A stretch of DNA of 64,000 bases. It comes from a virus (lineage: Duplodnaviria > Heunggongvirae > Uroviricota > Caudoviricetes). Under the pieces are notes generated by a model. It was given only the letters and a program-made list of their open reading frames with translations, did not search any database and was not told the DNA's origin. Positions 1,830 to 57,404 of the stretch are shown here, piece after piece; position 1 is the stretch's first letter, and every line of letters starts with the position of its first letter. The DNA is taken from positions 182,482 through 246,481 of the IMG/VR virus record IMGVR_UViG_3300028833_000054, one strand, 5' to 3'. The position numbers and the translations under genes were made by a program.

Positions 1830-2723
1830 TCAATTAGATTTGATTTTTACACTTTCTCCCTCTAATAACTTCAAAAGTGCATTATTTGTAATTCCTAAAA
1901 CAAATGAATGATTTTTTGTGTGTATTTTAATATATGAATCTTCTTTCGTTTCTGAAAAATTTTCTCTAAGATCTTTAGCAGCTTCTTCTCTCATCTTACT
2001 GGTTACCAATCCATTATGATAACAGCTGATAAAGAAATTATTATTTCTCATCCAAGGTTTGTTTCCTTGATAAATCATATCACGGTCAATATTCTGTTCA
2101 TTCCTATAAATCTTATTCATAAATTTATAGTCATAATCTCTTGTATTCTCAAATCCGCCTATAGATAATAATGTATTCAAACGAATAACTAATTGGCTTG
2201 GGTCACAACTTGCACACGGATGAATAATTCTATATCCTTTGTTATTTCCTACTCCATCTATAAAGGCAAGACGGTCAGCATATCTAACAAAACGTTGAGA
2301 ACCAAATTCATCTACCATATTCATCCATAAAGGCCTTTCATTTCCAATGCAATATTCTTTAACAGTGTCAATAAAATTTGGATGAATAATATTGTCATCA
2401 TCAAGGACATAAACAAGAGGATTTGAATCTTTATATACTCTATTCTTCAAATCTTGCAGCGGGCCATTCATCAGCTCTCCACCATAATTGTCTTGTCCTT
2501 CCTTTCCTTGATAGTACATTACATATGATATGTCATTTTCTAAACAAACTACTTCTGCTCTTTTAATATTCAACGGAGACATATCTGAATTGTATTGGTC
2601 AAAACACAATACCCATACGGGATGAAGCTCTTTTTCATCTTTGAATCTTGTTGCAATATTTTTAGCAATAGGATACAAATTCTCTGTCCTTACTACTGCA
2701 GTAACTAACAATATGTCTGTCAT
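1830..2723 (-). CDS. Putative GT-A-fold glycosyltransferase (DxD-type)
   Basis: 297-aa ORF with YVLDDDNIIHPNF (hydrophobic beta-strand followed by a DDD metal/sugar-nucleotide-binding-type motif). No other family assignment is possible by eye. Confidence 0.35.
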   Translation of the reverse strand: MTDILLVTAVVRTENLYPIAKNIATRFKDEKELHPVWVLCFDQYNSDMSPLNIKRAEVVCLENDISYVMYYQGKEGQDNYGGELMNGPLQDLKNRVYKDSNPLVYVLDDDNIIHPNFIDTVKEYCIGNERPLWMNMVDEFGSQRFVRYADRLAFIDGVGNNKGYRIIHPCASCDPSQLVIRLNTLLSIGGFENTRDYDYKFMNKIYRNEQNIDRDMIYQGNKPWMRNNNFFISCYHNGLVTSKMREEAAKDLRENFSETKEDSYIKIHTKNHSFVLGITNNALLKLLEGESVKIKSN

Positions 2724-3787
2724 AATTGTACTATTTTGTTTTTATCAGGAATCATTTCTCCAAATACAAGATAAATGTTATTTTCCCATTCTACTGGTTC
2801 CAAAAGGCATTTCCTTTTAATAAGCTGCATATCAATTATTTTGCTATCATAATTTTTCAAACAGTCCTGTATTTTTTCACAAAGAGATGATATACCGTTA
2901 TCAGTGTATTTGTCAAATTTATATGAATTTGGAATAGGATAGTCATCAAATGTACTTGCACATCCTTCATTAGGAAGCAATAGCAAGCAATCTCTTATAG
3001 CAGCTTCTCTTGGACACATCTCCCTACCTTCATATTCATAAAAATCTACATATACTTTAGCCTTATCATATAAAGCTATCATTTCTTCTTTTGTCAAATA
3101 TTTTCCAGATTTGTCTGGGCCTAGGCCAACAAATTCAATATTTGGCAAACTACCTTTTACAAGTTCAATGTACTTTCTATTTACTTCTTTGCAAGCATTA
3201 TAAAGTACAATATCTTCTTTTGTACTATTTCTTTTACTGTAAAATGAAGGATAAAGACCATGTTGAAATTTAATTCTATTTGTTATTCCATAATACAACA
3301 AATCTCTTCCTATCATCTCATTTTCATACAAATGCAAACAACGGTCTTCAATAGATTTAAGCTTCAGCAATTGTCTTCTTCTTGATATTTTTACTGAGGT
3401 ATCATTATAATCAAATCCAGATGAAAGCCACCATATAATCAATTGCAAATGTTTAAAATTACAAAAGAAATCTAAATTTTTTGGATTCTCTATCATAATC
3501 TCAGGGATAAGAAGCACGGTGTTTTCATCATCTGTTACTTCTTTCCATGTACCGTAATTTATGTCATATAGATTTTTATAATAATCATTTTGTTCAAAAA
3601 TACCGTCAAATCTATAATTGAACATTTTTGCATTTACTCCAAGAGATTTAAGATGAGCAGCCAATTTTTGCAACACTTCAGCTCCTCCTGATTTAACTTC
3701 AGGAGTATTTCCCCAAATCATCAATTTAGAATCTTTTGTAATTTTAATCATTTTTGTATGGACCGAATCTTTTTTCATAAATCTCAA
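2720..3787 (-). CDS. Putative GT-B-fold (GT4-like) glycosyltransferase
   Basis: 355-aa ORF. The C-terminal region EGREMCPREAAIRDCLLLLPNEGCAST resembles the E-x7-E / EG...EA...G nucleotide-sugar-binding motif of retaining GT-B enzymes. The real start may be an internal Met (3751 or 3721), which would remove the 43-nt overlap with the pol fragment. Confidence 0.35.
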   Translation of the reverse strand: MRFMKKDSVHTKMIKITKDSKLMIWGNTPEVKSGGAEVLQKLAAHLKSLGVNAKMFNYRFDGIFEQNDYYKNLYDINYGTWKEVTDDENTVLLIPEIMIENPKNLDFFCNFKHLQLIIWWLSSGFDYNDTSVKISRRRQLLKLKSIEDRCLHLYENEMIGRDLLYYGITNRIKFQHGLYPSFYSKRNSTKEDIVLYNACKEVNRKYIELVKGSLPNIEFVGLGPDKSGKYLTKEEMIALYDKAKVYVDFYEYEGREMCPREAAIRDCLLLLPNEGCASTFDDYPIPNSYKFDKYTDNGISSLCEKIQDCLKNYDSKIIDMQLIKRKCLLEPVEWENNIYLVFGEMIPDKNKIVQL

Positions 3788-5228
3788 TCAGATGATATTT
3801 TTCATCAATTGCTGTCATCATCTCTTTCTTATATGCTTTTCTTTGCATATAGAAATCAGTACAAATCTTTGGAATAAATCCTGGTAGATTACGTTTGTAG
3901 ACAGCACCAGATGTACACATAATTTCATCTGCTTGTCTTCTATGATTTTTGTTTTTCTCTATGAATGTTTCAGGAGAAATATTAAACTGTCTGATTGTTG
4001 TAGGATAAAGTGAAGCAAAGTCAAGTGCAATAACATTCTTATAAATTCCTGCAATTGGTTGATACACAAATGCTCCTTCATATCCTTCATCATTTCCGTC
4101 TGCTTTTTTCTTTCCCTGGTTTGGCATTACTCTGCCTTCTTTGTAAAGATATTCAGACTGAACGATTTCAAGACTTCTCACTGGACTGAATGCAGTCAAT
4201 GCATCAACATGCATAAGATTTGCAAGACCTAAGAATGCAGAACTTGTTTTAATCTTGTTGTCAATTTCACGAACAAGAATACTATCAATTGCATTATAAA
4301 AAACATATTCTGCAGGCTTTTGCCTCCACAGTTCTTTGAATCCCAATTGATGTTCTACCTTCTTTGCACCAACTACTGTATGTGATACCCAGTCAAGTTT
4401 GTTTGATTCTTTGACTTCAACAGACCTATCCCATTTGATATAAATCTCCATATAGTCATACAACAACTTATGCTTTGGAAGACTAATCTTCACTCCTGCC
4501 TCTGCCTGCTGTGGAGTATAATTATACCAAGTTCCAGTCGGTGACAAATATGAAATATCAATACCTAAATTGCTTGCACGATTGAACAAATATGGATAGT
4601 CATATCCAAAGAAATTCCAACCTGTTGCACATGGAGCTGGGTAAAGAAAACTCCTGAAAAATGTTTGCAACAATTCAACTTCAGTATCAAATGACAAATA
4701 TGTAAACTTGTAATTGGTTTTGAATCCCTTACAATGTTCATCAATCTGTTCTTGAATCCATTTTATTTCTGTTTCACTAAGCTTTACTCTTCCAAGAACA
4801 TATGCTTGGTCATCTACAACCCATGAAATTGTATTTACAGGATTTTTTGCCAAACTAGCTTCAGGAAATCCATCATCATCTACATCAACCTCAATATCAC
4901 AGAATGAAGTTTTTGGCATGTACAACTTATTGATTTCTGCAATTTCAGGGTTTGCTGCAATCAAATCTAAAAGAATTTCATGAATTCTTTGTTCAGTTAA
5001 AAATCCATTTACTGGGTCTTTTACAACAGCTTTATAATCCCAAGACTTAAATGAACCATCTGGAACTTCTCCTCGTTTACAATATTTCCATTGATACAGT
5101 TGTGTCTGTGGAATAATATAAGTTAAATATGATATTCCACCTTCTTTATTGATATAAGACAGCACAAGCTGACGAGCTGGCTGTCCTTGTTCATTCAATA
5201 CATCTCGTATTTCTGTAGTAACTATCAT
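3744..5228 (-). CDS. Family-B DNA polymerase, N-terminal fragment (3'-5' exonuclease domain plus palm motif A), T4 gp43-like; C-terminal half missing from the window
   Basis: Exo I FCDIEVD, Exo II GWNFFGYDYPYL, Exo III YNAIDSILV, motif A IALDFASLYPTTIRQFNISPETF (compare T4 gp43 DLTSLYPSIIRQVNISPETI), then GFIPKICTDFYMQRKAYKKEMM (compare T4 GIIPKEIAKVFFQRKDWKKKMF). The ORF stops about 30 aa later, before motif B (KxxxNSxYG) and motif C (YGDTDS). Confidence 0.8.
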   Translation of the reverse strand: MIVTTEIRDVLNEQGQPARQLVLSYINKEGGISYLTYIIPQTQLYQWKYCKRGEVPDGSFKSWDYKAVVKDPVNGFLTEQRIHEILLDLIAANPEIAEINKLYMPKTSFCDIEVDVDDDGFPEASLAKNPVNTISWVVDDQAYVLGRVKLSETEIKWIQEQIDEHCKGFKTNYKFTYLSFDTEVELLQTFFRSFLYPAPCATGWNFFGYDYPYLFNRASNLGIDISYLSPTGTWYNYTPQQAEAGVKISLPKHKLLYDYMEIYIKWDRSVEVKESNKLDWVSHTVVGAKKVEHQLGFKELWRQKPAEYVFYNAIDSILVREIDNKIKTSSAFLGLANLMHVDALTAFSPVRSLEIVQSEYLYKEGRVMPNQGKKKADGNDEGYEGAFVYQPIAGIYKNVIALDFASLYPTTIRQFNISPETFIEKNKNHRRQADEIMCTSGAVYKRNLPGFIPKICTDFYMQRKAYKKEMMTAIDEKYHLIEIYEKRFGPYKND

Positions 5229-5242: not shown

Positions 5243-5785
5243 TTACTGGCTTACATTACTACCGAATCCTTTTTCTCCTCTTTTACTTTCTGAATGATAC
5301 TCTTCAAATTCTTTGGCACTAATCAAATTAGGCTTGCTCAAAATAATTGGTGAATGAATAAACTGAACAAGCTTCTGTCCTGTTCTGATAATAGTTGCTT
5401 CATCTGTAAAGTTTGCAATACCAAGATGAACTTCACCAGAGTAATCAGAATCAACAATCTCCGCAGTATAAACAAGACCTTGCTTTGTTGAAACACCAGA
5501 CTTATTTGCAGCCATCAACATTGTTCCAGGAGCAATTGCAGTCTTAATTCCTGAAGGAATAAGAATCCTTGACCCAGGAAGAAGAGTAATCTCAAGAACA
5601 GTCTTATCTTCAATTTTGGTGATATTATATCTTACATGAGCGTTTGGATTTTTAGATATTAAATCATGCAAGAAATCTCTCCCATATTCAGGTACATAAA
5701 AATCAACACCAGCTGCTTCAGCAGTTCCTCTTGTCAAATCATGTACATTTCTAACTTTAATGTAATTAAATTCATCTAATTTCAT
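5243..5785 (-). CDS. dut: dUTPase / dCTPase-family (trimeric dUTPase fold) nucleotidohydrolase
   Basis: All five dUTPase motifs are present: AAGVD, KSGVSTKQG, IVDSDYSGE, GQKLVQ and RGEKGFGSN. In T4-like phages the homolog (gp56) is a dCTPase/dUTPase. Confidence 0.75.
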   Translation of the reverse strand: MKLDEFNYIKVRNVHDLTRGTAEAAGVDFYVPEYGRDFLHDLISKNPNAHVRYNITKIEDKTVLEITLLPGSRILIPSGIKTAIAPGTMLMAANKSGVSTKQGLVYTAEIVDSDYSGEVHLGIANFTDEATIIRTGQKLVQFIHSPIILSKPNLISAKEFEEYHSESKRGEKGFGSNVSQ

Positions 5786-9432: not shown

Positions 9433-9435
9433 TGT

Positions 9436-9720: not shown

Positions 9721-9735
9721 GATTATATAAATTAT

Positions 9736-10437
9736 TTATGCATTGATTTCTGGGTCATCTTTATGAATATACTGTTCAATAAACTTGAAATGCCTCTCAT
9801 AAATATGAATACTTCCACATGAAAAAATTATTTCAGGATAAAAATCAACATCAATATTGTTGTCTCTTAAATCCTTTACCAATTTGTTTGCAACATACTG
9901 ATGCCAAGCTAAATCATTCCTGAATCCAAATATTGCATCACAGCTTCTTTGATAAACAATGTAAACAAGCTTTTTATTTCTGACAAACTGATGTGTATAA
10001 CAAGTACACATAAAATCTGACATTCCATTCTTGTTATATTCATACTGCATTTCAGGACGAGTATAAATCATAACAGCTCTTCTTGTATAAGGGTCATCAA
10101 TAAGTTGTCTCAAACAATTTCTGTATTGATTTTTATTCTCTTCACTAAAAATACACCAACCATAATTTGAATTGATGAACCCGTCTTTGTCAGCAACTTG
10201 TTTCCAAACTTCTGGAACTTTACCAGGAATATCATATACATTCAAAGACTGTGACAAATACCAACTAAGTTCTCTTTCAACATAATCTTGATTTACTTGA
10301 TGAAATATTGTATTGTCAGTAGCAATGAAATTCTCACCGACAATTTCAACTGTCTTCCTTCCTTGACTGTCTACTGTAAACTCACCATTCTGATATTTCT
10401 TTGCAAACTCGTGTCTAATATCTTCTACTGTCTTCAT
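9736..10437 (-). CDS. ThyA-fold pyrimidine hydroxymethylase, dCMP-hydroxymethylase type (T4 gp42-like)
   Basis: Strong similarity along its length to the thymidylate synthase/dCMP hydroxymethylase fold: KTVEIVGENFIATD, INSNYGWCIFSEEN, RRAVMIYTRPEMQYEYNKNGMSDFMCT (catalytic Cys), YQRSCDAIFGFRNDLAW. The FGFRND position carries Asp (cytosine-specific dCH type) rather than the Asn of ThyA. Length 233 aa, like gp42 and unlike 264-aa ThyA. Confidence 0.7.
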   Translation of the reverse strand: MKTVEDIRHEFAKKYQNGEFTVDSQGRKTVEIVGENFIATDNTIFHQVNQDYVERELSWYLSQSLNVYDIPGKVPEVWKQVADKDGFINSNYGWCIFSEENKNQYRNCLRQLIDDPYTRRAVMIYTRPEMQYEYNKNGMSDFMCTCYTHQFVRNKKLVYIVYQRSCDAIFGFRNDLAWHQYVANKLVKDLRDNNIDVDFYPEIIFSCGSIHIYERHFKFIEQYIHKDDPEINA

Positions 10438-11057
10438 ATCAATTCTACATTCATTTCTTTTAACTTAGAGAGGATTTCATTACAGATATCATCAATATTA
10501 CGGTAATTACCATCTACTGTCTCTACATTGATTTTCATATAGTATCTCGGATGCAACCTATCCATAATTTCATTAAACAATTTAACCTCTCTTGTAACTG
10601 TCTTCAATCTTTTTTCTGGGTCATATTTTGATGTAAAAGACTTGTCATCATCATGAGATATAACAAATTCTGGACTAGCATCGAGATGAATTACAACTGG
10701 AGTAAAATACAAATTTTTGTTATGAATATCTCTTATCATTTCAAAAATTTTATCTGGGTCACCATTTCTGTAAATTTGTCCATACACATATTCACCAATA
10801 TGACTTCTGTCCATAAATGCGATTGTTTTATTACATCTCTTAAGAACATATTCTTGCATTGCCATTGTACTGCATTTTACAACTGCTTGCTTGAATGTTT
10901 CTCTTTGAACTTCATTTTGGTCTTCACCTTCTTCACATTTCGGCCCAGTAGCATGCATAAGAAAAATATCTGCAACGTTCTTATACTTATCTGCTAATTT
11001 GTTAATGATTGTGCTTTTACCAAGGTTGTCAGCTCCTTCAAATATCAATGTTACCAT
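10434..11057 (-). CDS. Thymidylate-kinase-family dNMP kinase
   Basis: P-loop IFEGADNLGKST and DRS motif (FMDRSHIGEYVYG). 207 aa. Overlaps the hydroxymethylase gene by 4 nt. Confidence 0.65.
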   Translation of the reverse strand: MVTLIFEGADNLGKSTIINKLADKYKNVADIFLMHATGPKCEEGEDQNEVQRETFKQAVVKCSTMAMQEYVLKRCNKTIAFMDRSHIGEYVYGQIYRNGDPDKIFEMIRDIHNKNLYFTPVVIHLDASPEFVISHDDDKSFTSKYDPEKRLKTVTREVKLFNEIMDRLHPRYYMKINVETVDGNYRNIDDICNEILSKLKEMNVELI

Positions 11058-11104
11058 ACTTTACAATTTTCTTGAAAATTATATCAGCACAGCTTTTAAG
11101 ATAT

Positions 11105-11131
11105 TAAAAAAGAGGAGCAAAAGCTCCTCTT
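11105..11131 (-). terminator. Rho-independent terminator-like hairpin
   Basis: aagaggagc/gctcctctt 9-bp stem with a 4-nt loop, flanked by an A-run (a U-run on the minus transcript), 14 nt downstream of the 11145 stop. Confidence 0.55.
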
Positions 11132-34349: not shown

Positions 34350-35153
34350 TCACTTAATCATATTGAGATATTCATCTTCAGTGAACTTAGAAATTCCTAA
34401 CTCATTGGCTTTCTTAATCTTAGCAGCACCTGCTTTGTCACCAACAATAAGAAATGTCAATCCTCTGGATATTCCAGATGCATATGTACCACCATTTGCA
34501 ATAACAGATTCTTTGATTTCATCTCTAGAGAAGTTCTTTAAAGTACCTGTTGCAAGAATAGTCATTCCGAACAATTTGTTACCAGTTGTCATAGGCTTAT
34601 CAAACTTTGTATTAAAATATTTGTAAACATTCTGAAGTTCTTCCTTTTCAGATGCCATGTAATTATGTACATTATTTCCTGCAACTTCACCAAGAACACC
34701 AACAACATCATCTAATGATGCCTTTTCTATTTCTTCAATAGAACCAAATCTCTCAAGAAGTTTCTTAGCATTTACTTTTCCAATACCTGCAATACCAAGA
34801 GACATCAAAACATTTTCTGCCTTTGCTTTGTTTCTTGAATTCATCAATTCATCAACAATATTTCTTGCAACAACTGGTCCACAACCTGCATGCTGCAATT
34901 GTTCTGCAGTAAGATTATATAAATCCCACCAGTTTCTGATATTAAGTGCAGGAACAATCTTTCGGAGAGTCTTTTCAGACAATCCATCAATATTCATACA
35001 CTCCTTAGTTACAAAATAATTTAATTTTGCAATTCTTCTTTCTTCACAATCAGGATTGCTACAATAAAGATGAGCACCATCTTCAAGGAGTCTTACTATC
35101 GGAGCTCCACAAAACGGACAAACAGTCGGTTCTTCAATTTTAATAGCTTTCAT
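34350..35153 (-). CDS. ligA: NAD-dependent DNA ligase, C-terminal fragment (Zn-finger, HhH and BRCT domains)
   Basis: CPFCGAPIVRLLEDGAHLYCSNPDC (Cys4 Zn finger), HhH region, and BRCT GMTILATGTLKNFSRDEIKESVIANGGTYASGISRGLTFLIVGDKAGAAKIKKANELGISKFTEDEYLNMI. The start codon overlaps the stop of the inserted GT2 gene (TAATG). Confidence 0.8.
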   Translation of the reverse strand: MKAIKIEEPTVCPFCGAPIVRLLEDGAHLYCSNPDCEERRIAKLNYFVTKECMNIDGLSEKTLRKIVPALNIRNWWDLYNLTAEQLQHAGCGPVVARNIVDELMNSRNKAKAENVLMSLGIAGIGKVNAKKLLERFGSIEEIEKASLDDVVGVLGEVAGNNVHNYMASEKEELQNVYKYFNTKFDKPMTTGNKLFGMTILATGTLKNFSRDEIKESVIANGGTYASGISRGLTFLIVGDKAGAAKIKKANELGISKFTEDEYLNMIK

Positions 35154-36406
35154 TAATTAGCAGGAGTATATATGTTACACAATGTTTTTAATTTTTCCTT
35201 TTCAAAAGGTTTACTCATATCAGTGCATTGATATTCTTCATTCCACAAAGGGTCATCAGAACCAAGTTCAAGAATTCTATTATGAATTTGTTCATCATAT
35301 TTTTTTCTCAAAAGAGAATTGGTTCTTTGTATTTCATCAAACCTATGTGATTGAGCAGTAGTTCCATCCCTTCTTGTTGTATTGTTTCCTTCATGTTGAA
35401 TATACAAAACTTTATCAACAATAGAAATTTTTCCATACAGAAATGTGCGAATCAACAAATCCATATCATCAAGAACTGATAACTCTATATTATGACCGCC
35501 AATCTTATGATAAAATTCTTTTTTCCAACATCTAACATGATTAGGAAGAGCATGAATTCCTCTGACAGAAACTGCATTAACAAGTGCAGTCAATGCAATA
35601 TTTCGTTCTTGGCCCATTACAAATACTTTTCTGTATTCGCCAAGACCATAAGCAAAATTCTCAGAATAATAAATTTCATGTCCATTTACTTCTTCCATTG
35701 CATGAGAATAAACAAAATCACTGTCAGGATATGCAGCAAAAGTATTATTCAGTTGTTCAAGACAATCTGGAAGAAGTTCATCATCATGGTCTACTTCAAC
35801 AAGATAATCTCCATCACAAGCAGAAGCAATCATATGCTTGTTGAAACCAATATTTCCATGATTAGTGATATTCTTGACTACTACAATTCTTGGGTCATGG
35901 AAATGTTCAATCATTTCAGAAGTAGCAGGAGAAGTACTATCATCAAGAATATACCAATTCCAATTGTGATAAGTTTGATTTAGCAAAGACTCATACAGTC
36001 TTACAAACATCTTTTTTGGAGTATTGAATGTACAAGTGAAAATTGAAAACAACTTTACTTCTTGTGGACGTTCTCTATTAATATTATTAAGAAATACTCC
36101 AATAATTGCTCTTGCTAAAGTATCAGGTTCAAAAGTATCTTTGTGAATCCATTTCTTTCTGAACTCAAATGACATTTCATTAAGAGGTTTGAAATCAATA
36201 TTTTCACCTACTGTAATAATACAATCAAATCCTTTTGCTTTATTGAGTTCAGACAAAAGATTGTTAGTATTTTTAACTATATGAAAATCAAACCCTTTCT
36301 CACCATAATACCACTTATACTCTGGGTCAGTTGAAGTAGTGACCAAAGAGTAATCATGTTCATCGGCGAGAGGGTCAATGATAAATGCTGAAATTCTATT
36401 CTTCAT
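35153..36406 (-). CDS. GT2-family (GT-A fold) glycosyltransferase inserted between the two halves of ligA
   Basis: FSIFTCTFNTPKKMFVRLYESLLNQTYHNWNWYILDDSTSPAT (classic GT2 N-terminus) and DxD motif VEVDHDDELLPD. Extra ~130-aa N-terminal domain of unknown function. Both ends overlap the ligA fragments by 1 nt. Confidence 0.7.
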   Translation of the reverse strand: MKNRISAFIIDPLADEHDYSLVTTSTDPEYKWYYGEKGFDFHIVKNTNNLLSELNKAKGFDCIITVGENIDFKPLNEMSFEFRKKWIHKDTFEPDTLARAIIGVFLNNINRERPQEVKLFSIFTCTFNTPKKMFVRLYESLLNQTYHNWNWYILDDSTSPATSEMIEHFHDPRIVVVKNITNHGNIGFNKHMIASACDGDYLVEVDHDDELLPDCLEQLNNTFAAYPDSDFVYSHAMEEVNGHEIYYSENFAYGLGEYRKVFVMGQERNIALTALVNAVSVRGIHALPNHVRCWKKEFYHKIGGHNIELSVLDDMDLLIRTFLYGKISIVDKVLYIQHEGNNTTRRDGTTAQSHRFDEIQRTNSLLRKKYDEQIHNRILELGSDDPLWNEEYQCTDMSKPFEKEKLKTLCNIYTPAN

Positions 36407-39491: not shown

Positions 39492-40112
39492 TTATCGTCT
39501 TCCTCCACGGTGTTGATTTCCATTAGGTCTGTGATTTTCACTAGGTCTTGAACCAGGTTGTGGCTTTGGTGGAGGTGGTGTAGGACGATACCTTGGAAGA
39601 GGCATTGGTCTTGGACGATAATATAGTCTTGTATGATTATATGGAATAATTGTTCTTTCATAATAAAAATCATAAATTCTTCTATAAAGAACATGATTTC
39701 TAATTACTCCTGTATCTTTATCAACATACTTGTAAATACCTGTAATATCAATTACACCATTTAAATACATTTGATATAACTCAGGAAAATGATTCTTCAA
39801 TACTTCCATCATTTCAGAATGATTTCTGTAATAGTACTTCATAAAATGATACTTGACTTTGTAATCAACTGTACCATCTTCAAGTACAACTTCTTTCATT
39901 GAGTCAACATCCAAAACTCCTTCCATATAATATGTATAAAGTTGAGGATAATGATTTGCAAGAACATAAGAAATCTCGTCCATCTCTTTGACTCTTCTTT
40001 GATTTGCATAAGATGCTGTTGCACAAGATATGAAAATCATTGATGAAATCAATACGAGTAATAAACTAAATTTTTTCATAGTTAACGATCTTTGTAATTT
40101 TTCTCTAGCCAA
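39492..40112 (-). CDS. Secreted/lipoprotein with two ~45-aa internal repeats and a Pro-rich basic C-terminal tail
   Basis: Signal peptide MKKFSLLLVLISSMIFISCATA (the likely start is the internal Met at ~40079). Repeats LKNHFPELYQMY / LANHYPQLYTYYM. C-terminal PRPMPLPRYRPTPPPPKPQPGSRP. Confidence 0.45.
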   Translation of the reverse strand: MAREKLQRSLTMKKFSLLLVLISSMIFISCATASYANQRRVKEMDEISYVLANHYPQLYTYYMEGVLDVDSMKEVVLEDGTVDYKVKYHFMKYYYRNHSEMMEVLKNHFPELYQMYLNGVIDITGIYKYVDKDTGVIRNHVLYRRIYDFYYERTIIPYNHTRLYYRPRPMPLPRYRPTPPPPKPQPGSRPSENHRPNGNQHRGGRR

Positions 40113-41185
40113 GTTTGATATGTTCCAGAAATAACATTGTTCAACCAGTCTTCATTGTCTAAATACCATTTGACAGTTTTTTCAATTCCGGTGTCAAATG
40201 TTTCTTCTGGCTTCCAACCAAGTTCATTCTGCAATTTACTTGAGTCAATAGCATATCTCAAATCATGGCCTTTTCTATCTGTTACAAATTGTATGCTAGA
40301 CTCATAAGTTCTAACCCACAACGGCTCAGGATTTGTAATATATTTTTTATTGCTTCTAAGTTGTTTTTCATGTGCAAATACTTTAATAATCTTCTTGATT
40401 ATATCAATATTGCTCATTTCGTGGTTTCCTCCAACATTGTAAGTTTCACCAGACTTTCCATTGTGAAAAATAACATCAATTGCTGCTGCATGGTCTTCAA
40501 CATATAACCAATCTCTTACATTTTCACCTGTTCCATAAACTGGTATTTCTTCATGATTCTTCAACTTGTTTATTACAAGCGGAATAAGTTTTTCTGGAAA
40601 TTGATTTGGTCCGTAATTGTTACTGCAATTGCTAATTGTAACATTCAATCCATAAGTATCATGATAAGCTTTTACAATATGGTCTGAACTTGCTTTACTT
40701 GCAGAATACGGAGAATGAGGATTATATGGAGTAGTTTCAGTAAACTTATTCTCTGGATTCATATCAAGTGCACCATAAACTTCATCAGTTGAAACATGAT
40801 GAAATCTATGAATTGCAAGATTATCTTTCCACTTGTTAAGTGCAACTTCTAACAATCTGTATGTTCCAACAATATTAGTATTGATAAACTCACCCGGGTC
40901 AAGAATACTTCTGTCAACGTGACTTTCTGCAGCAAGATTGATTATATCCGTAACATTGTATAAATCAAATGCGTTTTCAACATCTGCTTTATTTGCAATA
41001 TCACCACAGAAAAACTTGTAATTCTTACTTTCTTCAATATCTTTCAAGTTTTCAAGGTTTCCCGCATAAGTAAGTTTGTCAAAATTAATAATCAAATAAT
41101 TAGGATAGTTTTTAACGAATCTCCTAACAACGTGACTACCGATGAAGCCTGCTCCACCGGTAATCATTATAACTTTCTCAAACAT
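40082..41185 (-). CDS. rmlB: dTDP-glucose 4,6-dehydratase
   Basis: ITGGAGFIGSHVVRRFVKNYPNYLIINFDKLTYAGNLENL N-terminus. SDR YxxxK (YSASKASSDH). Full-length colinearity with RfbB. Confidence 0.85.
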   Translation of the reverse strand: MFEKVIMITGGAGFIGSHVVRRFVKNYPNYLIINFDKLTYAGNLENLKDIEESKNYKFFCGDIANKADVENAFDLYNVTDIINLAAESHVDRSILDPGEFINTNIVGTYRLLEVALNKWKDNLAIHRFHHVSTDEVYGALDMNPENKFTETTPYNPHSPYSASKASSDHIVKAYHDTYGLNVTISNCSNNYGPNQFPEKLIPLVINKLKNHEEIPVYGTGENVRDWLYVEDHAAAIDVIFHNGKSGETYNVGGNHEMSNIDIIKKIIKVFAHEKQLRSNKKYITNPEPLWVRTYESSIQFVTDRKGHDLRYAIDSSKLQNELGWKPEETFDTGIEKTVKWYLDNEDWLNNVISGTYQTWLEKNYKDR

Positions 41186-42107
41186 AAAATCTAAATACTT
41201 TTTCTACTACTCTATCAACAGAAGTTGCCCACTGTGGAATAAAAGCATTATAAATGTTAATAACTTTGTCTTTTGATAACAAACCAAACTTAGGTCTCTC
41301 GACATTGGTAGGATAGTCTGATGTCTTACAAGGTTTGATTACTCCTCCAAAGAACATTGACCTCTTAGCAGCTTCTCTCTTATATGCAGCGAGAACCTCA
41401 CAAGCAAAATCATACCAAGTTGTATAACCTAAATTTGAAAAATGATAAATTCCTGATGTAAATGGTACAGTATTAGATGAATCACCAACAATGACATCAG
41501 TAACAATGAATTTTGCCAAATCACCAGCATAAGTAGGAGTTCCGAACTGGTCATCAACAACATTCATATCCTTGTTGTCCTTCATATTCTGAAGAGTAGT
41601 CAATACGAAATTCTTTCCGTATTCAGAATACAACCAAGATGTTCTGATAATCATATACTCAAGGTCTCCGCGTTTTGCAATATTCTGAATCTCTGTCTCA
41701 CCAAGAAGTTTTGTTCTTCCATAAGTGTTGAGAGGACCAGTAGGAGAATCTTCAGTCTTCAAATCAGGACTTCCGTCAAATACATAATCAGTTGAAATAT
41801 GGATAAGACGAATTTTTGACTTCTCGCAAGCTTCAGCAAGAAGCTTAGGACCATATCCATTTGCAAGGATAGCTGCATCTTCATTGTCAGTACAACCACC
41901 AACATTTGTATATGCAGCACAATTGATTACATAATCATAATCGCCGTCTTCGACATATTTCTTTACATGAGTAGAATCCGAAATATTCATTTCAGGCAAA
42001 TCTACTGCATCATATTCAAAAGAATCTCCGTAATTCTTTATAGCATCAATAATACACTTGCCAAGTTGACCATTGGCACCAGTGATAAGAATTTTAGTTT
42101 TCTGCAT
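41178..42107 (-). CDS. rmlD: dTDP-4-dehydrorhamnose reductase
   Basis: KILITGANGQLGKCI Rossmann start and YGRTKLLGE (YxxxK). About 300 aa. Confidence 0.8.
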   Translation of the reverse strand: MQKTKILITGANGQLGKCIIDAIKNYGDSFEYDAVDLPEMNISDSTHVKKYVEDGDYDYVINCAAYTNVGGCTDNEDAAILANGYGPKLLAEACEKSKIRLIHISTDYVFDGSPDLKTEDSPTGPLNTYGRTKLLGETEIQNIAKRGDLEYMIIRTSWLYSEYGKNFVLTTLQNMKDNKDMNVVDDQFGTPTYAGDLAKFIVTDVIVGDSSNTVPFTSGIYHFSNLGYTTWYDFACEVLAAYKREAAKRSMFFGGVIKPCKTSDYPTNVERPKFGLLSKDKVINIYNAFIPQWATSVDRVVEKVFRFYV

Positions 42108-42675
42108 AATAATCTATATTATAATCAAATAAATTGTTTTCATCTATATCTCCCCAAGTAGGGTGGCAGCAATCCTTCTTAGATAAAATAATAGCTCCAT
42201 CATATACCTTTCCCCAATCAATTCCCACAGAATTCCAGTCAAGTGCTGCTTCAGATTCTTTATCATAAGGATTATCACACTTGTATTGGAAGATTGTATC
42301 ATCTTTCAATGCAATAAATCCGTGGGCAAATCCACGAGGAATGAAAAATTGTTTATGATTGTCTTCAGTAAGAAATACACCGACAAATTTTCCAAAGGTA
42401 GGAGAACCTTTTCTAATATCTACTGCAACATCATAGACTGCACCTTTTACTACTCTAACGAGTTTTGACTGTGCAAATGGTGGTTTCTGCCAGTGAAGAC
42501 CTCTGATAACTCCAGCTCTTGATTTACTTTCATTATCTTGAACGAAAGTTGTGTTGCAAACTAATTCTCTAAACTGTTTGTCATTAAACGATTCAAAAAA
42601 ATGACCTCTGTCATCTTTAAAAATATCTGGGTCAATCACATAGACACCAGGAATTTCTTGTTCTGTTACTTTCAT
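42094..42675 (-). CDS. rmlC: dTDP-4-dehydrorhamnose 3,5-epimerase
   Basis: Cupin signature FVQDNESKSRAGVIRGLHWQ...KLVRVVKGAVYDVAVDIRKGSPTFGKF...PRGFAHGF. Confidence 0.8.
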   Translation of the reverse strand: MKVTEQEIPGVYVIDPDIFKDDRGHFFESFNDKQFRELVCNTTFVQDNESKSRAGVIRGLHWQKPPFAQSKLVRVVKGAVYDVAVDIRKGSPTFGKFVGVFLTEDNHKQFFIPRGFAHGFIALKDDTIFQYKCDNPYDKESEAALDWNSVGIDWGKVYDGAIILSKKDCCHPTWGDIDENNLFDYNIDYYAEN

Positions 42676-45247: not shown

Positions 45248-45832
45248 TTAAATTATTCCCATTTTTTGAAGAGTAACCTCTGTAAATACTCTAAATTCAA
45301 TTCCTCTTTCTTCACACCAAGCAACTGCTGCTTTCCACTTTGCATTATTCTGCAAATAAGTTCTTGCAGCTTCATTAAATCTTTTCTGCTCTTGTAATTT
45401 TGCACCAACAGGAGGAGGAACAGGTCTCTCTGTTTGATGTTTCGGTTTTATTTCAATGAACATCTTTTTTGTCTTTGTTCCATCTTCATCATCATCTGCT
45501 CTAATCTCAAGATAAAAATCTGGATAATAATTGTTTATTGGCCAATTTGCTGGGTCAAGAGGAGAAGAATTATATTTTCTGCAAGCATCTAAGTCAACAG
45601 CTGCAGGATTCTTATATTGAATTGAAGCAGTCTCACAGCCCCACTCAATAACAGCAGGATTGTCATCACACCAACGAGCAAATGCCATTTCCCAAGCTGA
45701 ACGGTAAATAACTTCACCTCCAACTACTTTACTTGGATTTTTTGGAACATAGACACCTTGATGCGGTTTTCCCGATTTCTCCTCATTCATTATGTTTGGT
45801 CTATGAGATTTTTTATATGCTAAGGTACTCAT
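45248..45832 (-). CDS. Head completion protein (T4 gp4-like, nuclease fold)
   Basis: GVYVPKNPSKVVGGEVIYRSAWEMAF...VIEWGCETASIQYKNP and C-terminal AKWKAAVAWCEERGIEFRVFTE parallel gp4 (KWVPKNPQKY..., AKWEAAERYANKLGVKF). PD-(D/E)xK-like YPDFYLEI...FIEIKP. Confidence 0.55.
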   Translation of the reverse strand: MSTLAYKKSHRPNIMNEEKSGKPHQGVYVPKNPSKVVGGEVIYRSAWEMAFARWCDDNPAVIEWGCETASIQYKNPAAVDLDACRKYNSSPLDPANWPINNYYPDFYLEIRADDDEDGTKTKKMFIEIKPKHQTERPVPPPVGAKLQEQKRFNEAARTYLQNNAKWKAAVAWCEERGIEFRVFTEVTLQKMGII

Positions 45833-46716
45833 TGTTGTAATTCTTCTTTTTTAATTAAATTTTCAAAGTATCTTACTGTATTTTCAAATACTCTGATTTT
45901 TGCAGCGTCTTCTGGTTTATTCTCTATTTTCAACAATCTAACTTTTGCTTTTGCTAAATCCAATTCAAAATAGTAATTAACTTTAAACCAGCTTCCAGTA
46001 TGTGAAATAGAATCTTTATGTATTCTATATATCAATAATTTATCTTTAAGCTTGTATGCAGTTCCTCCAAAAGAAAAGAATTCTGTCCAAAACATATAAT
46101 CTCCATAACTCGAATATTTGAATTTCAATTTATATTTAAGCAAAATATCTCTTCTTATACAAGAGCATTGATTACACCAAGATAATGGATGAAATACATG
46201 TTCTAAAGCAGGAGATTCATTAAATTTATCTGTTGCTTCATCATTAGGAAATACATCAAACCATCTTCTCTTCAAATCTGGCCATACTTCTTTTGACTCC
46301 TCTGGATTCTCCAATTGTCCAGTTAAGCTATTAGACCATTTCGGAATAACTGTACTACAACACGCATCATATTCATGATGATTATCCATAAATTCTACAT
46401 ACTTTTCAATCAATGTTTTATCAGGTATATCATCACCATCTAAACGAATAATATATTCTGTATCACAAAGTTGATATGATAAATTGTGTGCATCAATATA
46501 TGGCTTTGTCTTGTCTGTGCAATTTATATATAACTTAAATCTTTCATCTTGTTTACAAAACATTTCATAAATAATCTGAATGCTGTTGTCAGTTGACCAG
46601 TCATCAACAATATAGCACACAAAATCTTTGTAAGTTTGTGACTGAATAGCTTTGAGTGTAGGAATTATAAAATTTTCTACATTATGTACGGCCATTGCGA
46701 TTCCAACTTTCATCAT
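45829..46716 (-). CDS. GT2-family glycosyltransferase (paralog A)
   Basis: VGIAMAVHNVENFIIPTLKAIQSQTYKDFVCYIVDDWSTDNS, ERFKLYIN, YIDAHNLSY, DGDD. Confidence 0.75.
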   Translation of the reverse strand: MMKVGIAMAVHNVENFIIPTLKAIQSQTYKDFVCYIVDDWSTDNSIQIIYEMFCKQDERFKLYINCTDKTKPYIDAHNLSYQLCDTEYIIRLDGDDIPDKTLIEKYVEFMDNHHEYDACCSTVIPKWSNSLTGQLENPEESKEVWPDLKRRWFDVFPNDEATDKFNESPALEHVFHPLSWCNQCSCIRRDILLKYKLKFKYSSYGDYMFWTEFFSFGGTAYKLKDKLLIYRIHKDSISHTGSWFKVNYYFELDLAKAKVRLLKIENKPEDAAKIRVFENTVRYFENLIKKEELQQ

Positions 46717-47876
46717 CTCAAATCCATTATAAAATATGTTTCACCTACACCGTTGTTATATTTTAAGTATGCTCTCCAAACCTCATCTTGATTTCTTGCA
46801 TAAACAACATGATTTCCAGTCTGTATTGCATATTCCAAAAATATAGCAAACATTGTATCATCTATATGCTCTTCAGTAAATACAAAAGTATGTCCTTTAA
46901 CACAATTCATAACAGATATAACCTGTGTCATCAGAGCATATACTTGTTTAGTAGAATTGTTAAATTGAATAACATTATATGAATTAAGTATATCTTTCCA
47001 TTTTTCTCCTATCTTATGCATATCTTGTGAATTGATAAAGAATGCATTGATATACTTTTCTATAGAAAAATTAGATTCATTTTCACATAGAAAATAATTT
47101 GATGTGTTCAAAGTAGGAGTTCCATCAGGCCAACCTCTGCTTGCTTTCTTAATCCATTCATCAAATGATTTTGTATAATAATGTTTCACATAACCGCATC
47201 TATATTTAGGAGGAAAATGAGTATGTGATTGATAATCAACTACATGTAATCCTCCAATATTGTATTTAACTGGATTTGAACACATTGGAATATGTGAACC
47301 GTTAAACCAACAATTTTGAAATCTATCATATCCTCCTCTCAATATTGATTTGACAAATACATTTTCTTTGAACATCAATATTGGTTTAACAGGCTCTGGA
47401 AATCTTTCTTGTACTGAACCCTCTTCTTTATGATATTTTCCATTACTTCCATATACAATCCAATTAAAAGATATTGCATCTTCTTGAATCGTATCCAAAA
47501 ATTCCTTTATGTTACTATATACTCCTAATTCAAGAAATTCGTCAGCGTCAAAATATCCACACCATTTGTAATTTCCTTCATGCGCAAACATAGAATATAT
47601 CTGAACTTGAAAAGAGTCAAATCCTCTACAATCAAATATTTCTACTGTTTTATTTTCAATATAGTCTTTCAACAAAGTTTCTACAGAAGCATCATCATTA
47701 TTATCACATATAATAACTTTGTCAAATCCTAAATTAAGATAATGATCTACATATTCTATTAAATAATCATTTTCTCCTTTTGCACATGTAAATACAAGAT
47801 ACTTTTCTGCATCATCTGGGTCTTTATGATAGTATCTATCTATTTTATCTGTATGAAAATGATACACTTCGTTCAT
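46713..47876 (-). CDS. Putative GT-A-fold glycosyltransferase (DUF23/GT92-like)
   Basis: YLVFTCAKGENDYLIEYVDHYLNLGFDKVIICDNNDD and FDADEFLE (DxD). Confidence 0.45.
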   Translation of the reverse strand: MNEVYHFHTDKIDRYYHKDPDDAEKYLVFTCAKGENDYLIEYVDHYLNLGFDKVIICDNNDDASVETLLKDYIENKTVEIFDCRGFDSFQVQIYSMFAHEGNYKWCGYFDADEFLELGVYSNIKEFLDTIQEDAISFNWIVYGSNGKYHKEEGSVQERFPEPVKPILMFKENVFVKSILRGGYDRFQNCWFNGSHIPMCSNPVKYNIGGLHVVDYQSHTHFPPKYRCGYVKHYYTKSFDEWIKKASRGWPDGTPTLNTSNYFLCENESNFSIEKYINAFFINSQDMHKIGEKWKDILNSYNVIQFNNSTKQVYALMTQVISVMNCVKGHTFVFTEEHIDDTMFAIFLEYAIQTGNHVVYARNQDEVWRAYLKYNNGVGETYFIMDLR

Positions 47877-48325
47877 TACTTTTTAATTTGATTTATCAAT
47901 TCCTCAATTCTTATTCTATTATTTATAGCATAAATAATTGAGTCAATTGTTTTTATAGTTTCCAACATATACTTTGCATGTTGGTCTAGAAGTTCAATTT
48001 GATATTTTTCATCTTTTAAATCAGCATCAATTTGTGCATTGATTGCAGCCTCAGAAGAATATCTAATTTGTGCTTGTGTTTTATAATAGTTGTATTTTTG
48101 TGAATACTTAAATTTATATTCTCTGCTCAAGTATGAAATTTTAGACAACAACCCAAAATAATAATCAAGAGAATCTTGTCTTCTTGAATATATGACATTT
48201 TGCAGGTCTGGTAGATCTGCAAAATTTTTCATTTTTCCATTGAGTTCAGTAATCAAACTTGACCATTTCTGCTGATGCTCAAGAATATAATCTTCTAAAG
48301 TTTGTGGTTTCTGCTCTTCCATCAA
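47876..48325 (-). CDS. Hypothetical protein (coiled-coil-like)
   Basis: 149-aa ORF. Confidence 0.4.
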   Translation of the reverse strand: MMEEQKPQTLEDYILEHQQKWSSLITELNGKMKNFADLPDLQNVIYSRRQDSLDYYFGLLSKISYLSREYKFKYSQKYNYYKTQAQIRYSSEAAINAQIDADLKDEKYQIELLDQHAKYMLETIKTIDSIIYAINNRIRIEELINQIKK

Positions 48326-49146
48326 TCACAAAGATTTTTATATTTTATCTTTTCTTCTTTATACTTTTTTACTTGTTCATAATCTTTTTGCAAAGCAAAT
48401 CTTGTTTCTTTAAATTCTGACAATTTTGCCATAATATTATAGGGCACAAAGTAAAAATCAGAAGTAGAAGATGCATTTGTTTTATAATCACAATGAATAG
48501 ATTTTTCTACATTTGATTTATATAATCTTCCTCCACAGGCAAGTACATTCCACCAAAAAATATAATCACCTAATCCGTATGATATATACTTTGGATGATA
48601 TTTATCATAAAATGATTTTCTTATAGATGAAGAAGGATTTGACCAAATAACAGTATTTCCGCAATATGAATAGGCATTGTTTTTGTTGAACCAATCTAAT
48701 TCTTCTTTGCTGTGTGCATCTGCAAAGTCTTTGTCTTCTTCATATGTCAATTCAATTATTTCTCCATTTACAGCTTTGCATCTTTTCATTTTTGTTGAAA
48801 ATGCATCTATATTTGGATGTGTATTTAAGAATTCGACATGAAACTTTAAGTAATCTTCATATAAAATATCATCTGCATCTATTCTGAACAAATATTCTCC
48901 ATTTGCATATTCATAAGATAAATTGTGTGAATCAATATACTTGTCTGCTGTTATATTTACAAACAACTTAAATCTATTATCTTTCAAACAATACTCTTCA
49001 AGAATAATTTTTGCAGTATTATCTGTAGAATGATCATCTACTATAATAACTTCAAAATCAGTATATGTCTGTTTGATAATAGAATCTAATGTTTTTCGTA
49101 TACTTAATTCATTGTTATATGTTCCTATGCAAATACTAACTAACAT
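48322..49146 (-). CDS. GT2-family glycosyltransferase (paralog B)
   Basis: VSICIGTYNNELSIRKTLDSIIKQTYTDFEVIIVDDHSTDNT, NRFKLFVN, YIDSHNLSYEYA, DADD. Confidence 0.75.
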   Translation of the reverse strand: MLVSICIGTYNNELSIRKTLDSIIKQTYTDFEVIIVDDHSTDNTAKIILEEYCLKDNRFKLFVNITADKYIDSHNLSYEYANGEYLFRIDADDILYEDYLKFHVEFLNTHPNIDAFSTKMKRCKAVNGEIIELTYEEDKDFADAHSKEELDWFNKNNAYSYCGNTVIWSNPSSSIRKSFYDKYHPKYISYGLGDYIFWWNVLACGGRLYKSNVEKSIHCDYKTNASSTSDFYFVPYNIMAKLSEFKETRFALQKDYEQVKKYKEEKIKYKNLCD

Positions 49147-56297: not shown

Positions 56298-56381
56298 CGT
56301 TTACTTCTATATTTTCATATAAAAACTGACTATATCATCAACCGTTTGGTTGTTGCGCACTTCGAATAGTTCTGCATTACT

Positions 56382-56690
56382 CTATTCTACATCCTTACAC
56401 TCATCAGGATTAGTCGATACACTGTTATGAGTTCTTTTTTCTCTTCTAATTTTAAGAGATTTTAAGTGCATATGTTTTTGAAATTTTGGTTCCCAAGAAT
56501 TTTTCAGAAGTTGTTCAATTATAGTTCTTGAAATATTAAAATTATCTTTACAATACTTATATAATTTCGTATGACCTAAACAAGTATAAACTAAAATGTC
56601 ATTATAATATACAAAATATTCATAAGGACAATCTCTGTCCATCATTTTGTTATAAGCATCTTCTGATAATTTTTTTTCCTTTATTTGCAA
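56382..56690 (-). CDS. Hypothetical ORF inside the intron (possible detached/frameshifted C-terminal DNA-binding part of the homing endonuclease)
   Basis: 102-aa ORF overlapping the 3' end of the GIY-YIG ORF by 41 nt in another frame. Confidence 0.3.
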   Translation of the reverse strand: MQIKEKKLSEDAYNKMMDRDCPYEYFVYYNDILVYTCLGHTKLYKYCKDNFNISRTIIEQLLKNSWEPKFQKHMHLKSLKIRREKRTHNSVSTNPDECKDVE

Positions 56691-57210: not shown

Positions 57211-57404
57211 TTTAGCTCGGTATTTCCAGCTATCCAGAATCTGGACCTTAGGTTCTCTTAGTCAGTGTATTCGTGAGTGATTCAATCTCCTTATTTAACT
57301 GATACCGATAGCAAACAAATATTATTTTAATATTTATTCACACCCCAGCAGTTGGGTTCACGCAATTTTCAAAATCTGTTCCCAGATTAGGCCACAATTA
57401 ATTT

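Follow-up and report, generated by a model that had tools for sequence, protein, structure and literature searches.

The 64,000-nucleotide stretch of DNA analysed in this work (henceforth the window) derives from the ~364-kb genome of a phage that is uncultivated and was sampled from anaerobic gut or rumen. When the region was compared by megablast with the GenBank phages no match was obtained, thus the phage is not among the described ones. All genes discussed here are on the minus strand and their coordinates are those of the window. The gene at 9736..10437 encodes a 233-aa protein of the ThyA fold and overlaps by 4 nt, read directly from the sequence as ATGA, with the gene of a 207-aa kinase (10434..11057) located directly upstream. 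Both ORFs and their overlap had been described in an earlier note on this DNA and are confirmed here.

Judged from its sequence, the 233-aa protein belongs to the folate-dependent dCMP hydroxymethylases of the T4 gp42 type (predicted 5hm-dCMP synthase activity), in agreement with what the earlier note had proposed. It matched PF00303 (Thymidylat_synt) with 60.4 bits (cut-off 24.3, E 2e-16) and phrog_160 with an E-value of 1.5e-46. In a phmmer search of the PDB the T4 dCMP hydroxymethylase (1b49) was found with an E-value of 2.4e-71, a match that rules out chance similarity, whereas true thymidylate synthases scored around 1e-7. BLASTP comparison with T4 gp42 showed 47% identity over 231 residues, and in a tblastn search of deposited phages the top matches were all gp42 proteins of Straboviridae, with identities up to 56%. 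Pfam annotation of the genes called in the window and tblastn revealed neither a second ThyA-family gene nor ThyX, which bears out the observation that there is no obvious thymidylate synthase in this region.

The active-site residues were compared in a MAFFT alignment with E. coli ThyA, T4 gp42 and RB69 gp48. The key residues of the 233-aa protein are Glu56, Asp141, Cys144, Asp167 and Asp175. The catalytic cysteine of the DFMCT motif (residues 141-145) is Cys144, aligned to Cys148 of T4 gp42 and C146 of E. coli ThyA, and the discriminating aspartate of the FGFRND motif (residues 170-175) is Asp175, aligned to Asp179 of gp42 and N177 of ThyA; the reading of these two motifs in the earlier note was thus correct. 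Asp141 occupies the position of E. coli L143, and Asp167 that of E. coli D169, where the Asp is kept. The window enzyme and gp42 share the residues E W Y D C D D H Y at positions 58/80/94/143/146/169/177/207/209 (E. coli numbering), the corresponding residues of RB69 gp48 being F A F E C N D H F. Alignment of the Asn/Asp position and of the folate-binding residues, which had been suggested as a check, thus yielded the gp42 pattern with Asp at the discriminating site. The same pattern was found in all 120 closest database homologues, apart from gaps at 207/209 in two sequences. In the ThyA family (E. coli numbering) N177D confers specificity for cytosine (dCMP), an acidic residue at L143 gives access to water and leads to a hydroxymethyl rather than a methyl product, and D169N is diagnostic of the O2/FMN-dependent 5-hydroxy-dCMP synthases of the RB69 gp48 type (PMC13326640).

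The 207-aa protein has the fold of thymidylate kinases (Tmk), and both the P-loop and the DR-type motif characteristic of the Tmk family are present. Its PF02223 score (17.7 bits) was below the cut-off of 27, several homologues carry a precomputed PF02223 match, and its profile weakly resembles PPK2 (E 3.6e-4). It is also weakly homologous to RB69 gp45; in the literature the family is called just "nucleotide kinase". No similarity to the T4 gp1 DNMK (PF21448) was found, hence it is not a gp1 homologue. The gene is translationally coupled to the hydroxymethylase gene and is a conserved partner of it. The suggestion that a Tmk-family kinase could phosphorylate hm-dCMP holds as far as the Tmk-like character, conservation and coupling are concerned; hm-dCMP would be a plausible substrate, and we propose the protein as an hm-dCMP kinase. 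The related phage LR756500 encodes a hydroxymethylase-type ThyA homologue in the absence of a kinase of this type, thus the kinase is not universally required.

A context gene at 5243..5785 codes for a 180-aa protein, which the earlier note assigned to a dUTPase/dCTPase family. It is a canonical trimeric dUTPase (PF00692, E 1.3e-14), and the dCTPase part of the assignment could not be maintained: T4 gp56 belongs to PF08761 (dimeric dUTPase_2), BLASTP returned no alignment between the two proteins, and tblastn of gp56 against the window found nothing. Homologues (~40% identical) occur in Lak phages and LR756500, as well as in Bacteroides phages. In LR756500 the dUTPase gene directly adjoins PolB-N and is far from the hydroxymethylase homologue of that genome; because the gene context differs in such relatives, the presence of the dUTPase is not tied to the hydroxymethylase. 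Neither a dCTPase (gp56/MazG type) nor a gp1-type dNMP kinase was detected in the window or ~10 kb beyond either side, and PHROG and Pfam scans of ~30 small neighbouring ORFs revealed no dCTPase, MazG or HD enzyme. The data therefore give no support for exclusion of dCTP or, as a consequence, for complete replacement of cytosine. Of the cytosine replacement predicted earlier, the hydroxymethylase type of the enzyme stands and complete substitution is an extrapolation. To speak of the classic T-even hmC nucleotide module was an overstatement, as the kinase is not gp1, the dUTPase is not gp56 and no dCTPase was found.

Next to the dUTPase gene, the ORF at 3744..5228 encodes the N-terminal half only (exonuclease domain and motif A) of a family-B DNA polymerase (PF03104, PF00136), which aligns with residues 114-492 of RB69 gp43. 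The anaerobic ribonucleotide reductase gene nrdD (54555..57902) is split by a NUMOD3 homing-endonuclease gene, the order of Pfam domains from the 57902 end being ATP-cone, NUMOD3 and NRDD; L009 carries an unsplit NrdD of 742 aa. Together with the NrdG activase (53109-53591; Pfam/NCBIfam), NrdD indicates, as judged from gene content, an anaerobic host.

The window contains at least six glycosyltransferase (GT) genes and one weaker GT-B-like candidate, as well as RmlB/C/D. Two of these proteins belong to families that are invisible to Pfam and PHROGs. One is a cryptic 297-aa GT of GT-A fold (1830..2723), a candidate DNA glycosyltransferase with an invariant LDDDN motif. The other (2720..3778, 352 aa), a probable GT-B-type enzyme and likewise a candidate DNA glycosyltransferase, gave no match with Pfam or PHROG; the profile of its family (1401 representatives) matched PDB 8xsg, a "putative glycosyltransferase", with an E-value of 1.4e-4, and a GG.E N-terminal motif and an E-x7-E-like motif can be recognised by eye. 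This ORF is not the C-terminal half of the polymerase, since it shows no similarity to residues 493-903 of RB69 gp43. Neither protein had a tblastn match in GenBank phages. An NAD-dependent DNA ligase is split into two halves, one comprising the adenylation/OB and the other the Zn/HhH/BRCT domains, and between them lies the gene of a 417-aa GT2 enzyme (35153..36406; PF00535, NCBIfam GT2 families). The genes of the dTDP-L-rhamnose pathway form a block (40082..42675), in which all three proteins exceeded the cut-offs of the NCBIfam equivalogs: RmlB (40082-41185; TIGR01181, 460.9 vs 365.1), RmlD (41178-42107; TIGR01214, 239.6 vs 224.05) and RmlC (42094-42675; TIGR01221, 222.1 vs 155.75). A further block (45829..49146), between gp4-like head-completion genes and UvsX/RecA, consists of a 148-aa ORF and three GT genes identified by Pfam, NCBIfam and PHROGs: a GT2 (45829-46716), a GT92-like (46713-47876) and another GT2 gene (48322-49146). 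Finally, Pfam and NCBIfam recognised an SDR-type NDP-sugar epimerase/dehydratase (52105-53124) and a GT2 enzyme (53595-54551). No homologue of alpha-gt or beta-gt was found in the window, and an IMG/VR search for close relatives of the GT2 genes returned the same phage species only. The whole genome of LR756500 has none of the GTs of the window; this phage proved uninformative as a hydroxymethylase-free control because it has its own hydroxymethylase-type homologue.

We consider it likely, judging from the gene content, that the gp42-type hydroxymethylase and the coupled kinase lead to 5hmC in the phage DNA. Homology, the active-site signature, the conserved gene coupling and the kinase fold are observed; the substrate of the kinase, incorporation into DNA and the extent of replacement we infer. 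In the proposed pathway Cys144 would attack C6 of dCMP and Asp175 would read the N3/N4 face of the cytosine. One carbon would come from methylene-tetrahydrofolate, and water, admitted by Asp141 in place of the bulky Leu of thymidylate synthase, would trap the exocyclic methylene to yield 5-hydroxymethyl-dCMP. The coupled Tmk-fold kinase would most likely convert hm-dCMP to hm-dCDP and the nucleoside-diphosphate kinase of the host would produce hm-dCTP, which the B-family polymerase of the phage would have to accept and incorporate. The phage DNA would then carry 5hmC for at least part of its cytosine.

Other activities are known in the same superfamily, and have to be weighed against this assignment. 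A flavin/O2-dependent 5-hydroxy-dCMP synthase of the RB69 gp48 or DLP3 gp80 type, giving DNA with (glycosylated) 5-hydroxycytosine, would share N177D and L143D/E, and the neighbouring Tmk-like kinase and the GT-rich genome are reminiscent of RB69, DLP3 and RL38J1. This reading is very improbable because Asp167 is retained, where that enzyme branch has Asn; RB69 gp48 shows the Asn in the same column, which validates the column. Moreover, the residues for folate binding and catalysis E58, W80 and Y94, which in RB69 gp48 are replaced by F, A and F, are kept, and the 47% identity of the window enzyme to T4 gp42 is to be compared with only 21-23% between RB69 gp48 and the T4-type homologue in L095-L098. 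NrdD and NrdG fit an anaerobic host, where the reaction leading to 5hoC would fail for want of O2 and a folate-dependent one would be possible. The names in the databases suggest an ordinary thymidylate synthase, or else a dUMP hydroxymethylase, producing T or hmU and leaving cytosine unmodified: Pfam and most labels of the homologues say "thymidylate synthase", and no other such enzyme is seen in the window. However, these names are automatic and T4 gp42 itself bears the same one, Asp stands at both the N177 and the L143 positions, and the PDB E-values are ~64 orders of magnitude nearer to gp42 than to any ThyA, so we give this explanation hardly any credence. It is in particular Asp175 that disfavours dUMP as substrate, and with it the 5-hmU product considered in the earlier note. 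A ThyA-family dCMP methyltransferase is found in Xanthomonas phage XP12, and the Asp at the N177 position would suit such an enzyme, making 5-methyl-dCMP, equally well; since the L143 position is occupied by Asp, as in gp42 and MilA, and not by a bulky hydrophobic residue, we regard this as a distant prospect.

It is more difficult to decide what the GTs do. A glycosyltransferase fold was found in genes linked to the hydroxymethylase gene, as is expected for phage DNA glycosyltransferases, and the GTs of the window could glycosylate hmC, a link that we hold less firmly than that between the hydroxymethylase and hmC. We lean slightly towards the view that the hydroxymethylase acts as proposed and that the GTs and RmlBCD have nothing to do with DNA but remodel the surface polysaccharide of the host (e.g. 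for superinfection exclusion) or glycosylate virion proteins, the hmC being bare or carrying another group. In jumbo phages, NDP-sugar/GT clusters of this kind have been interpreted by Iyer et al. (2021, PMC7824862) as systems that modify the capsule or the O-antigen, PHROGs label two of the GT2 proteins "GtrB-like O-antigen conversion", and all GTs of the window are acidic (pI 5.0-5.7). In addition, the GT and Rml genes recognised by Pfam (35-55 kb) are 25-45 kb from the hydroxymethylase gene, partly among head genes, and when 80 IMG/VR loci encoding homologues of the 352-aa GT were inspected, a ThyA homologue was nearby in only 4 and GT2 genes in 21. On the other hand, in phage metagenomes the neighbours of ThyA homologues commonly include DNA glycosyltransferases of the GT-A and GT-B types together with partner epimerases (Pyle et al., bioRxiv 10.1101/2023.12.21.572611). 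The two cryptic GT candidates share a conserved block with the polymerase, the dUTPase and the hydroxymethylase, other GT genes are scattered among those of ligase, UvsX and NrdD/G, and in one T4-like lineage a homologue of the 352-aa protein lies between gp43 and gp42. It is conceivable, but rather unlikely, that the phage follows a non-T4 route (gp42-type enzyme and Tmk-fold kinase, no gp56, no gp1), in which C is replaced by 5hmC and some of the about seven GTs then add an L-rhamnose (6-deoxyhexose) glycan made from the phage's dTDP-rhamnose. Rhamnosylated hmC is unreported as a DNA modification in the literature text search and in the glycan survey of Pyle et al.

That a new phage lineage should encode a gp42 homologue comes as no surprise, and the type of phage DNA modification concerned is a known one; the mining of metagenomes has already brought to light thousands of modification clusters linked to ThyS. 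Nothing specific to the present lineage emerged from a literature search on hmC in gut phages of the Lak, huge or jumbo type. If our assignment is true, pre-replicative cytosine modification as in T4 is used by large phages whose hosts are anaerobic bacteria of gut or rumen, and the chemistry of hmC extends to O2-free habitats, which are closed to the sister 5-hydroxycytosine pathway. There would be consequences for restriction and CRISPR targeting of the phage DNA, for the preparation of sequencing libraries from it and for methylation calling. The Tmk-fold kinase, which recurs beside ThyA homologues in the window phage, RB69, DLP3 and RL38J1, is an uncharacterised component of such pathways.

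It is instructive to compare the locus with the known systems. The window enzyme resembles T4 gp42 (PDB 1B49/1B5E) in fold, length class, overall identity, the catalytic Cys, the base-site and water-access Asp residues and the Glu/Trp/Tyr/His/Tyr set. It differs in that its Gln and Cys residues corresponding to E. coli 165 and 168 follow ThyA and not gp42, in its host genome, which is that of a large uncultivated gut/rumen phage rather than of a Straboviridae coliphage, and in its neighbourhood, which has the kinase directly upstream and lacks beta-gt and imm. With the T-even hmC pathway (gp56 dCTPase, gp42, gp1 dNMP kinase, alpha/beta-glucosyltransferases) the locus shares the logic of a hydroxymethylase combined with a phage NMP kinase and candidate GTs. 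The kinase is, however, of the Tmk fold instead of the gp1 family, the dUTPase comes from an unrelated trimeric family and a gp56-family dCTPase is missing from the window and its ~10-kb flanks, and the GT candidates are GT2/GT-A types and a novel GT-B-like family. The arabinosylation clusters of RB69 gp48 and DLP3 gp80 (PMC13326640) likewise combine a ThyA homologue having N177D and L143D/E with a Tmk-like kinase, several GTs and NDP-sugar synthesis, but their enzyme has D169N and has lost the folate-side residues kept here, and their sugar is UDP-arabinose, whereas dTDP-6-deoxyhexose (RmlBCD) is predicted for the window. In comparison with the metagenomic DNA glycosylation clusters of Pyle et al. 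(bioRxiv 10.1101/2023.12.21.572611), each a single compact cluster, the candidate GTs of the window are dispersed over >50 kb, and rhamnose or another deoxyhexose is not among the sugars reported by these authors. The two systems have in common a ThyS homologue, GT-A/GT-B enzymes and sugar epimerases among replication genes, and TarP, the top PDB match of their GT-A (TarP/JGT-like) DNA glycosyltransferases, is also among the structural neighbours of the 297-aa protein.

The earlier note had described two overlapping genes, a dCMP-hydroxymethylase-type ThyA homologue and a dNMP kinase, and both reading frames are present: a 233-aa protein at 9736-10437 (-) and a 207-aa protein at 10434-11057 (-). 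They overlap by 4 nt: in the junction ...GAA TTG ATA TGA AG..., ATGA contains both the TGA that ends the kinase gene and the ATG that opens the hydroxymethylase gene. The proposed identity of the 233-aa protein was borne out. It matched PF00303 with 60.4 bits (cut-off 24.3) and phrog_160 with an E value of 1.5e-46, and among all PDB sequences it was matched best, with an E value of 2.4e-71, by T4 deoxycytidylate hydroxymethylase (1b49), far ahead of the authentic thymidylate synthases (only ~1e-7). In BLASTP it was 47% identical to T4 gp42 (from NC_000866) over 231 residues. The strong matches among GenBank phages were all Straboviridae gp42 proteins, with at most 56% identity, found in Aeromonas T4-like phages.

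This family has two functional branches, folate-dependent 5hm-dCMP synthases such as T4 gp42 and FMN/O2-dependent 5-hydroxy-dCMP synthases such as RB69 gp48 and DLP3 gp80 (PMC13326640, 2026). Numbered as in E. coli ThyA, the diagnostic changes are N177D, which selects dCMP, L143D/E, which leads to a non-methyl product, and D169N, which marks the 5-hydroxy branch (PMC13326640). We aligned the window protein with E. coli ThyA, T4 gp42, RB69 gp48 (NC_004928) and the 120 closest database homologues; the alignment was validated by its RB69 gp48 row, which reproduced the published D169N. The motifs DFMCT (residues 141-145) and FGFRND (residues 170-175) had been read correctly as those of the catalytic Cys and the base-discriminating Asp, since alignment with E. 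coli ThyA, gp42 and gp48 gives C at 146 and D at 177. At E. coli positions 58/80/94/143/146/169/177/207/209 the window protein has E W Y D C D D H Y, the same as T4 gp42, and this pattern is found in all 120 homologues (two are gapped at 207/209), whereas RB69 gp48 has F A F E C N D H F. Because the diagnostic residues are identical to those of gp42, we assign the window enzyme as a predicted 5hm-dCMP synthase, i.e. a gp42-type dCMP hydroxymethylase, in agreement with all sequence criteria tested. The same residues make a thymidylate synthase, a dCMP methylase and a dUMP hydroxymethylase very unlikely, and with the last of these the alternative substrate dUMP, which would have yielded 5-hmU. 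A 5-hydroxy-dCMP synthase is ruled out by the D kept at 169, where RB69 gp48 has N. Furthermore, the window encodes the anaerobic ribonucleotide reductase NrdD/NrdG, which fits an anaerobic host, where the chemistry of the O2-dependent branch would in any case be impossible.

The 207-aa protein gave only sub-threshold Pfam matches (AAA_28, Guanylate_kin, Thymidylate_kin), and in PHROGs it matched phrog_761, 'thymidylate kinase' (3e-11). It is not a homologue of T4 gp1, to which BLASTP gave an E value of 10 and whose family, PF21448, it did not match. In three relatives whose hydroxymethylases share 74, 66 and 64% identity with that of the window, a kinase orthologue of 205-214 aa (54, 48 and 48% identical) lies immediately upstream, with the 4-nt overlap in two of the three, thus the gene pair is conserved. 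Kinase homologues of ~30% identity also occur near gp42 homologues in IMG/VR, adjacent in two loci (L019, L021) and ~3 kb away in a third (L032). There is weak homology (E 9e-5) to RB69 gp45, the Tmk-like 'nucleotide kinase' of the cytosine-modification clusters of RB69, DLP3 and RL38J1 (PMC13326640). Given the conserved pair, the homologues near gp42 and the likeness to RB69 gp45, phosphorylation of hm-dCMP would be the most economical role of the kinase.

A protein identical to the window enzyme is encoded on the 363,826-bp ENA contig ERZ27257202:k141_5984702, of which the window, by coordinate arithmetic, represents roughly 168.5-232.5 kb, and on shorter contigs from several other metagenomes. 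No nucleotide match to GenBank phages was found; some of its proteins are similar to proteins of the Lak Prevotella megaphages and of LR756500, a 462-kb uncultured phage. The phage, which has a T4-type portal, a gp4-like head-completion protein, a gp2-like protein, UvsX/RecA and a gp43-like polymerase, belongs to the T4-like assemblage as a very large and distant relative, and the sample names and the Lak similarity suggest a rumen or gut origin. LR756500.1 has a ThyA homologue (L150 1774-2481, ~151.8-152.5 kb) that shares 33% identity with the window enzyme and bears the hydroxymethylase signature (the Cys, and Asp at E. coli 143, 169 and 177), thus hmC-type enzymes occur in more than one huge-phage lineage. 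That genome has neither the Tmk-like kinase nor the GT families of the window.

Several genes of the phage are split. NrdD is in two ORFs, ATP-cone (57387-57902, -) and catalytic (54555-56273, -), between which lie a 102-aa ORF and a gene for a NUMOD3 homing endonuclease (56650-57210); as NrdD is intact (742 aa) in the related contig L009, the interruption arose recently, through a mobile element or an intron. The 494-aa B-family DNA polymerase (3744-5228, -) aligns to RB69 gp43 residues 114-492 and stops after motif A, and no C-terminal half is encoded anywhere in the window. Since equally short polymerases (492-495 aa) are kept in three relatives (L053-L055) and LR756500 has two polymerase halves ~13 kb apart, the polymerase appears, from these comparisons, to be naturally split.

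Some other features deserve mention. The gp4 homologue (phrog_218; 45248-45832, -) matches in its N-terminal region the Tn7 TnsA-like endonuclease N domain PF08722, and adjoins a gp2-like DNA-end protector (44602-45246). There are two giant ORFs: 17547-23726 (+; 2059 aa), without Pfam match, on the minority strand and kept in relatives, and 60158-64000 (-), where a gene for a 3898-aa protein containing a lamin-tail (LTD) domain begins before running off the window. G+C rises to 0.40-0.44 at 30000-34000 (~0.32 elsewhere), coinciding with a 594-aa Band_7/SPFH-domain gene (31097-32881) that may have been horizontally acquired; the 487-aa antisense ORF at 31436-32899 is probably a compositional artefact. 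A 248-aa protein (27075-27821, -) weakly matches sigma-70 region 2 and could be a sigma factor of the phage; one short ORF (27830-28159) separates its gene from that of a 596-aa ResIII/Helicase_C_2 helicase (28193-29983).

The earlier note did not mention glycosylation, for which the window encodes considerable capacity. A full complement of RmlB, RmlD and RmlC (40082-42675, -), each above its NCBIfam equivalog cut-off, would lead from dTDP-glucose to dTDP-L-rhamnose and directly adjoins the gene for the T4-type portal; RmlA was not seen among the genes of the window, and a further SDR epimerase/dehydratase is encoded. The recognised glycosyltransferases (GTs) comprise four GT2 genes and one GT92-like gene. 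One GT2 gene (417 aa) lies exactly between the halves of a split NAD-dependent DNA ligase (N half with Ia, adenylation and OB domains, 36406-37680, -; C half with Zn, HhH and BRCT, 34350-35153, -), with a 1-nt overlap at each junction, an arrangement that recurs unchanged in L011 and L012, two further contigs of this phage; others are beside UvsX and NrdD/NrdG. The 352-aa protein at 2720-3778 (-), rejected as the missing polymerase half, is a probable GT-B glycosyltransferase: the profile of its large, unannotated family (1401 representatives) matched the 'putative glycosyltransferase' structure 8xsg at 1.4e-4. Against a role of these genes in DNA modification, a hydroxymethylase was near genes of this family in only 4 of 80 IMG/VR loci, all of one T4-like lineage with the gene in a 10-kb gp43-gp42 insert, and GT2 genes in 21 of 80. 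The GTs are also acidic, and jumbo-phage GT/NDP-sugar clusters have been interpreted as surface-polysaccharide modifiers (PMC7824862). Large-scale mining (Pyle et al.) has already revealed DNA glycosyltransferases of the GT-A (TarP/JGT-like) and GT-B types, accompanied by epimerases, beside ThyS homologues, which makes glycosylated hmC plausible in this phage. That the window's own GT and sugar genes act on DNA seems possible, at somewhat less than an even chance, and a modification containing specifically rhamnose is unlikely. In a T4-like environmental phage (L096, IMGVR_UViG_3300025423_000009) a ~10-kb run of eight ORFs (5994-15756), one encoding a homologue of the 352-aa protein, lies between gp43 and a gp42 homologue (57% identical to T4 gp42); its position corresponds to that of the arabinosylation cluster in RB69, and it may be a new cluster for hmC hypermodification.

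Interest attaches to the lineage, since this is a huge phage whose hosts are probably anaerobes, to the recurrence of a kinase with the Tmk fold, and to a glycan that may contain deoxyhexose. The earlier note had seen in the hydroxymethylase, the kinase and a dUTPase/dCTPase-family enzyme a T-even module for cytosine replacement. The third protein (180 aa, 5243-5785, -) is a trimeric dUTPase (PF00692) with all five canonical motifs readable (AGVDF, NKSG, IVDSDYSGE, KLVQF, RGEKGFGS); T4 gp56 is a dimeric dUTPase_2 (PF08761), the pair gives no alignment, and nothing ties the window protein to dCTP removal. Its homologues (34-42% identical) are in Lak phages, small Bacteroides phages and LR756500, where the gene, as in the window, directly adjoins that of the N-terminal polymerase half, but lies far from the hydroxymethylase homologue. 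As no gp56-, MazG- or HD-type dCTPase candidate was found in the window or ~10 kb beyond each side, replacement of cytosine is not established. Compared with the T-even phages, the pathway is built of non-homologous parts with no dCTPase visible, but its core, a hydroxymethylase and a phage NMP kinase, follows the T-even logic.
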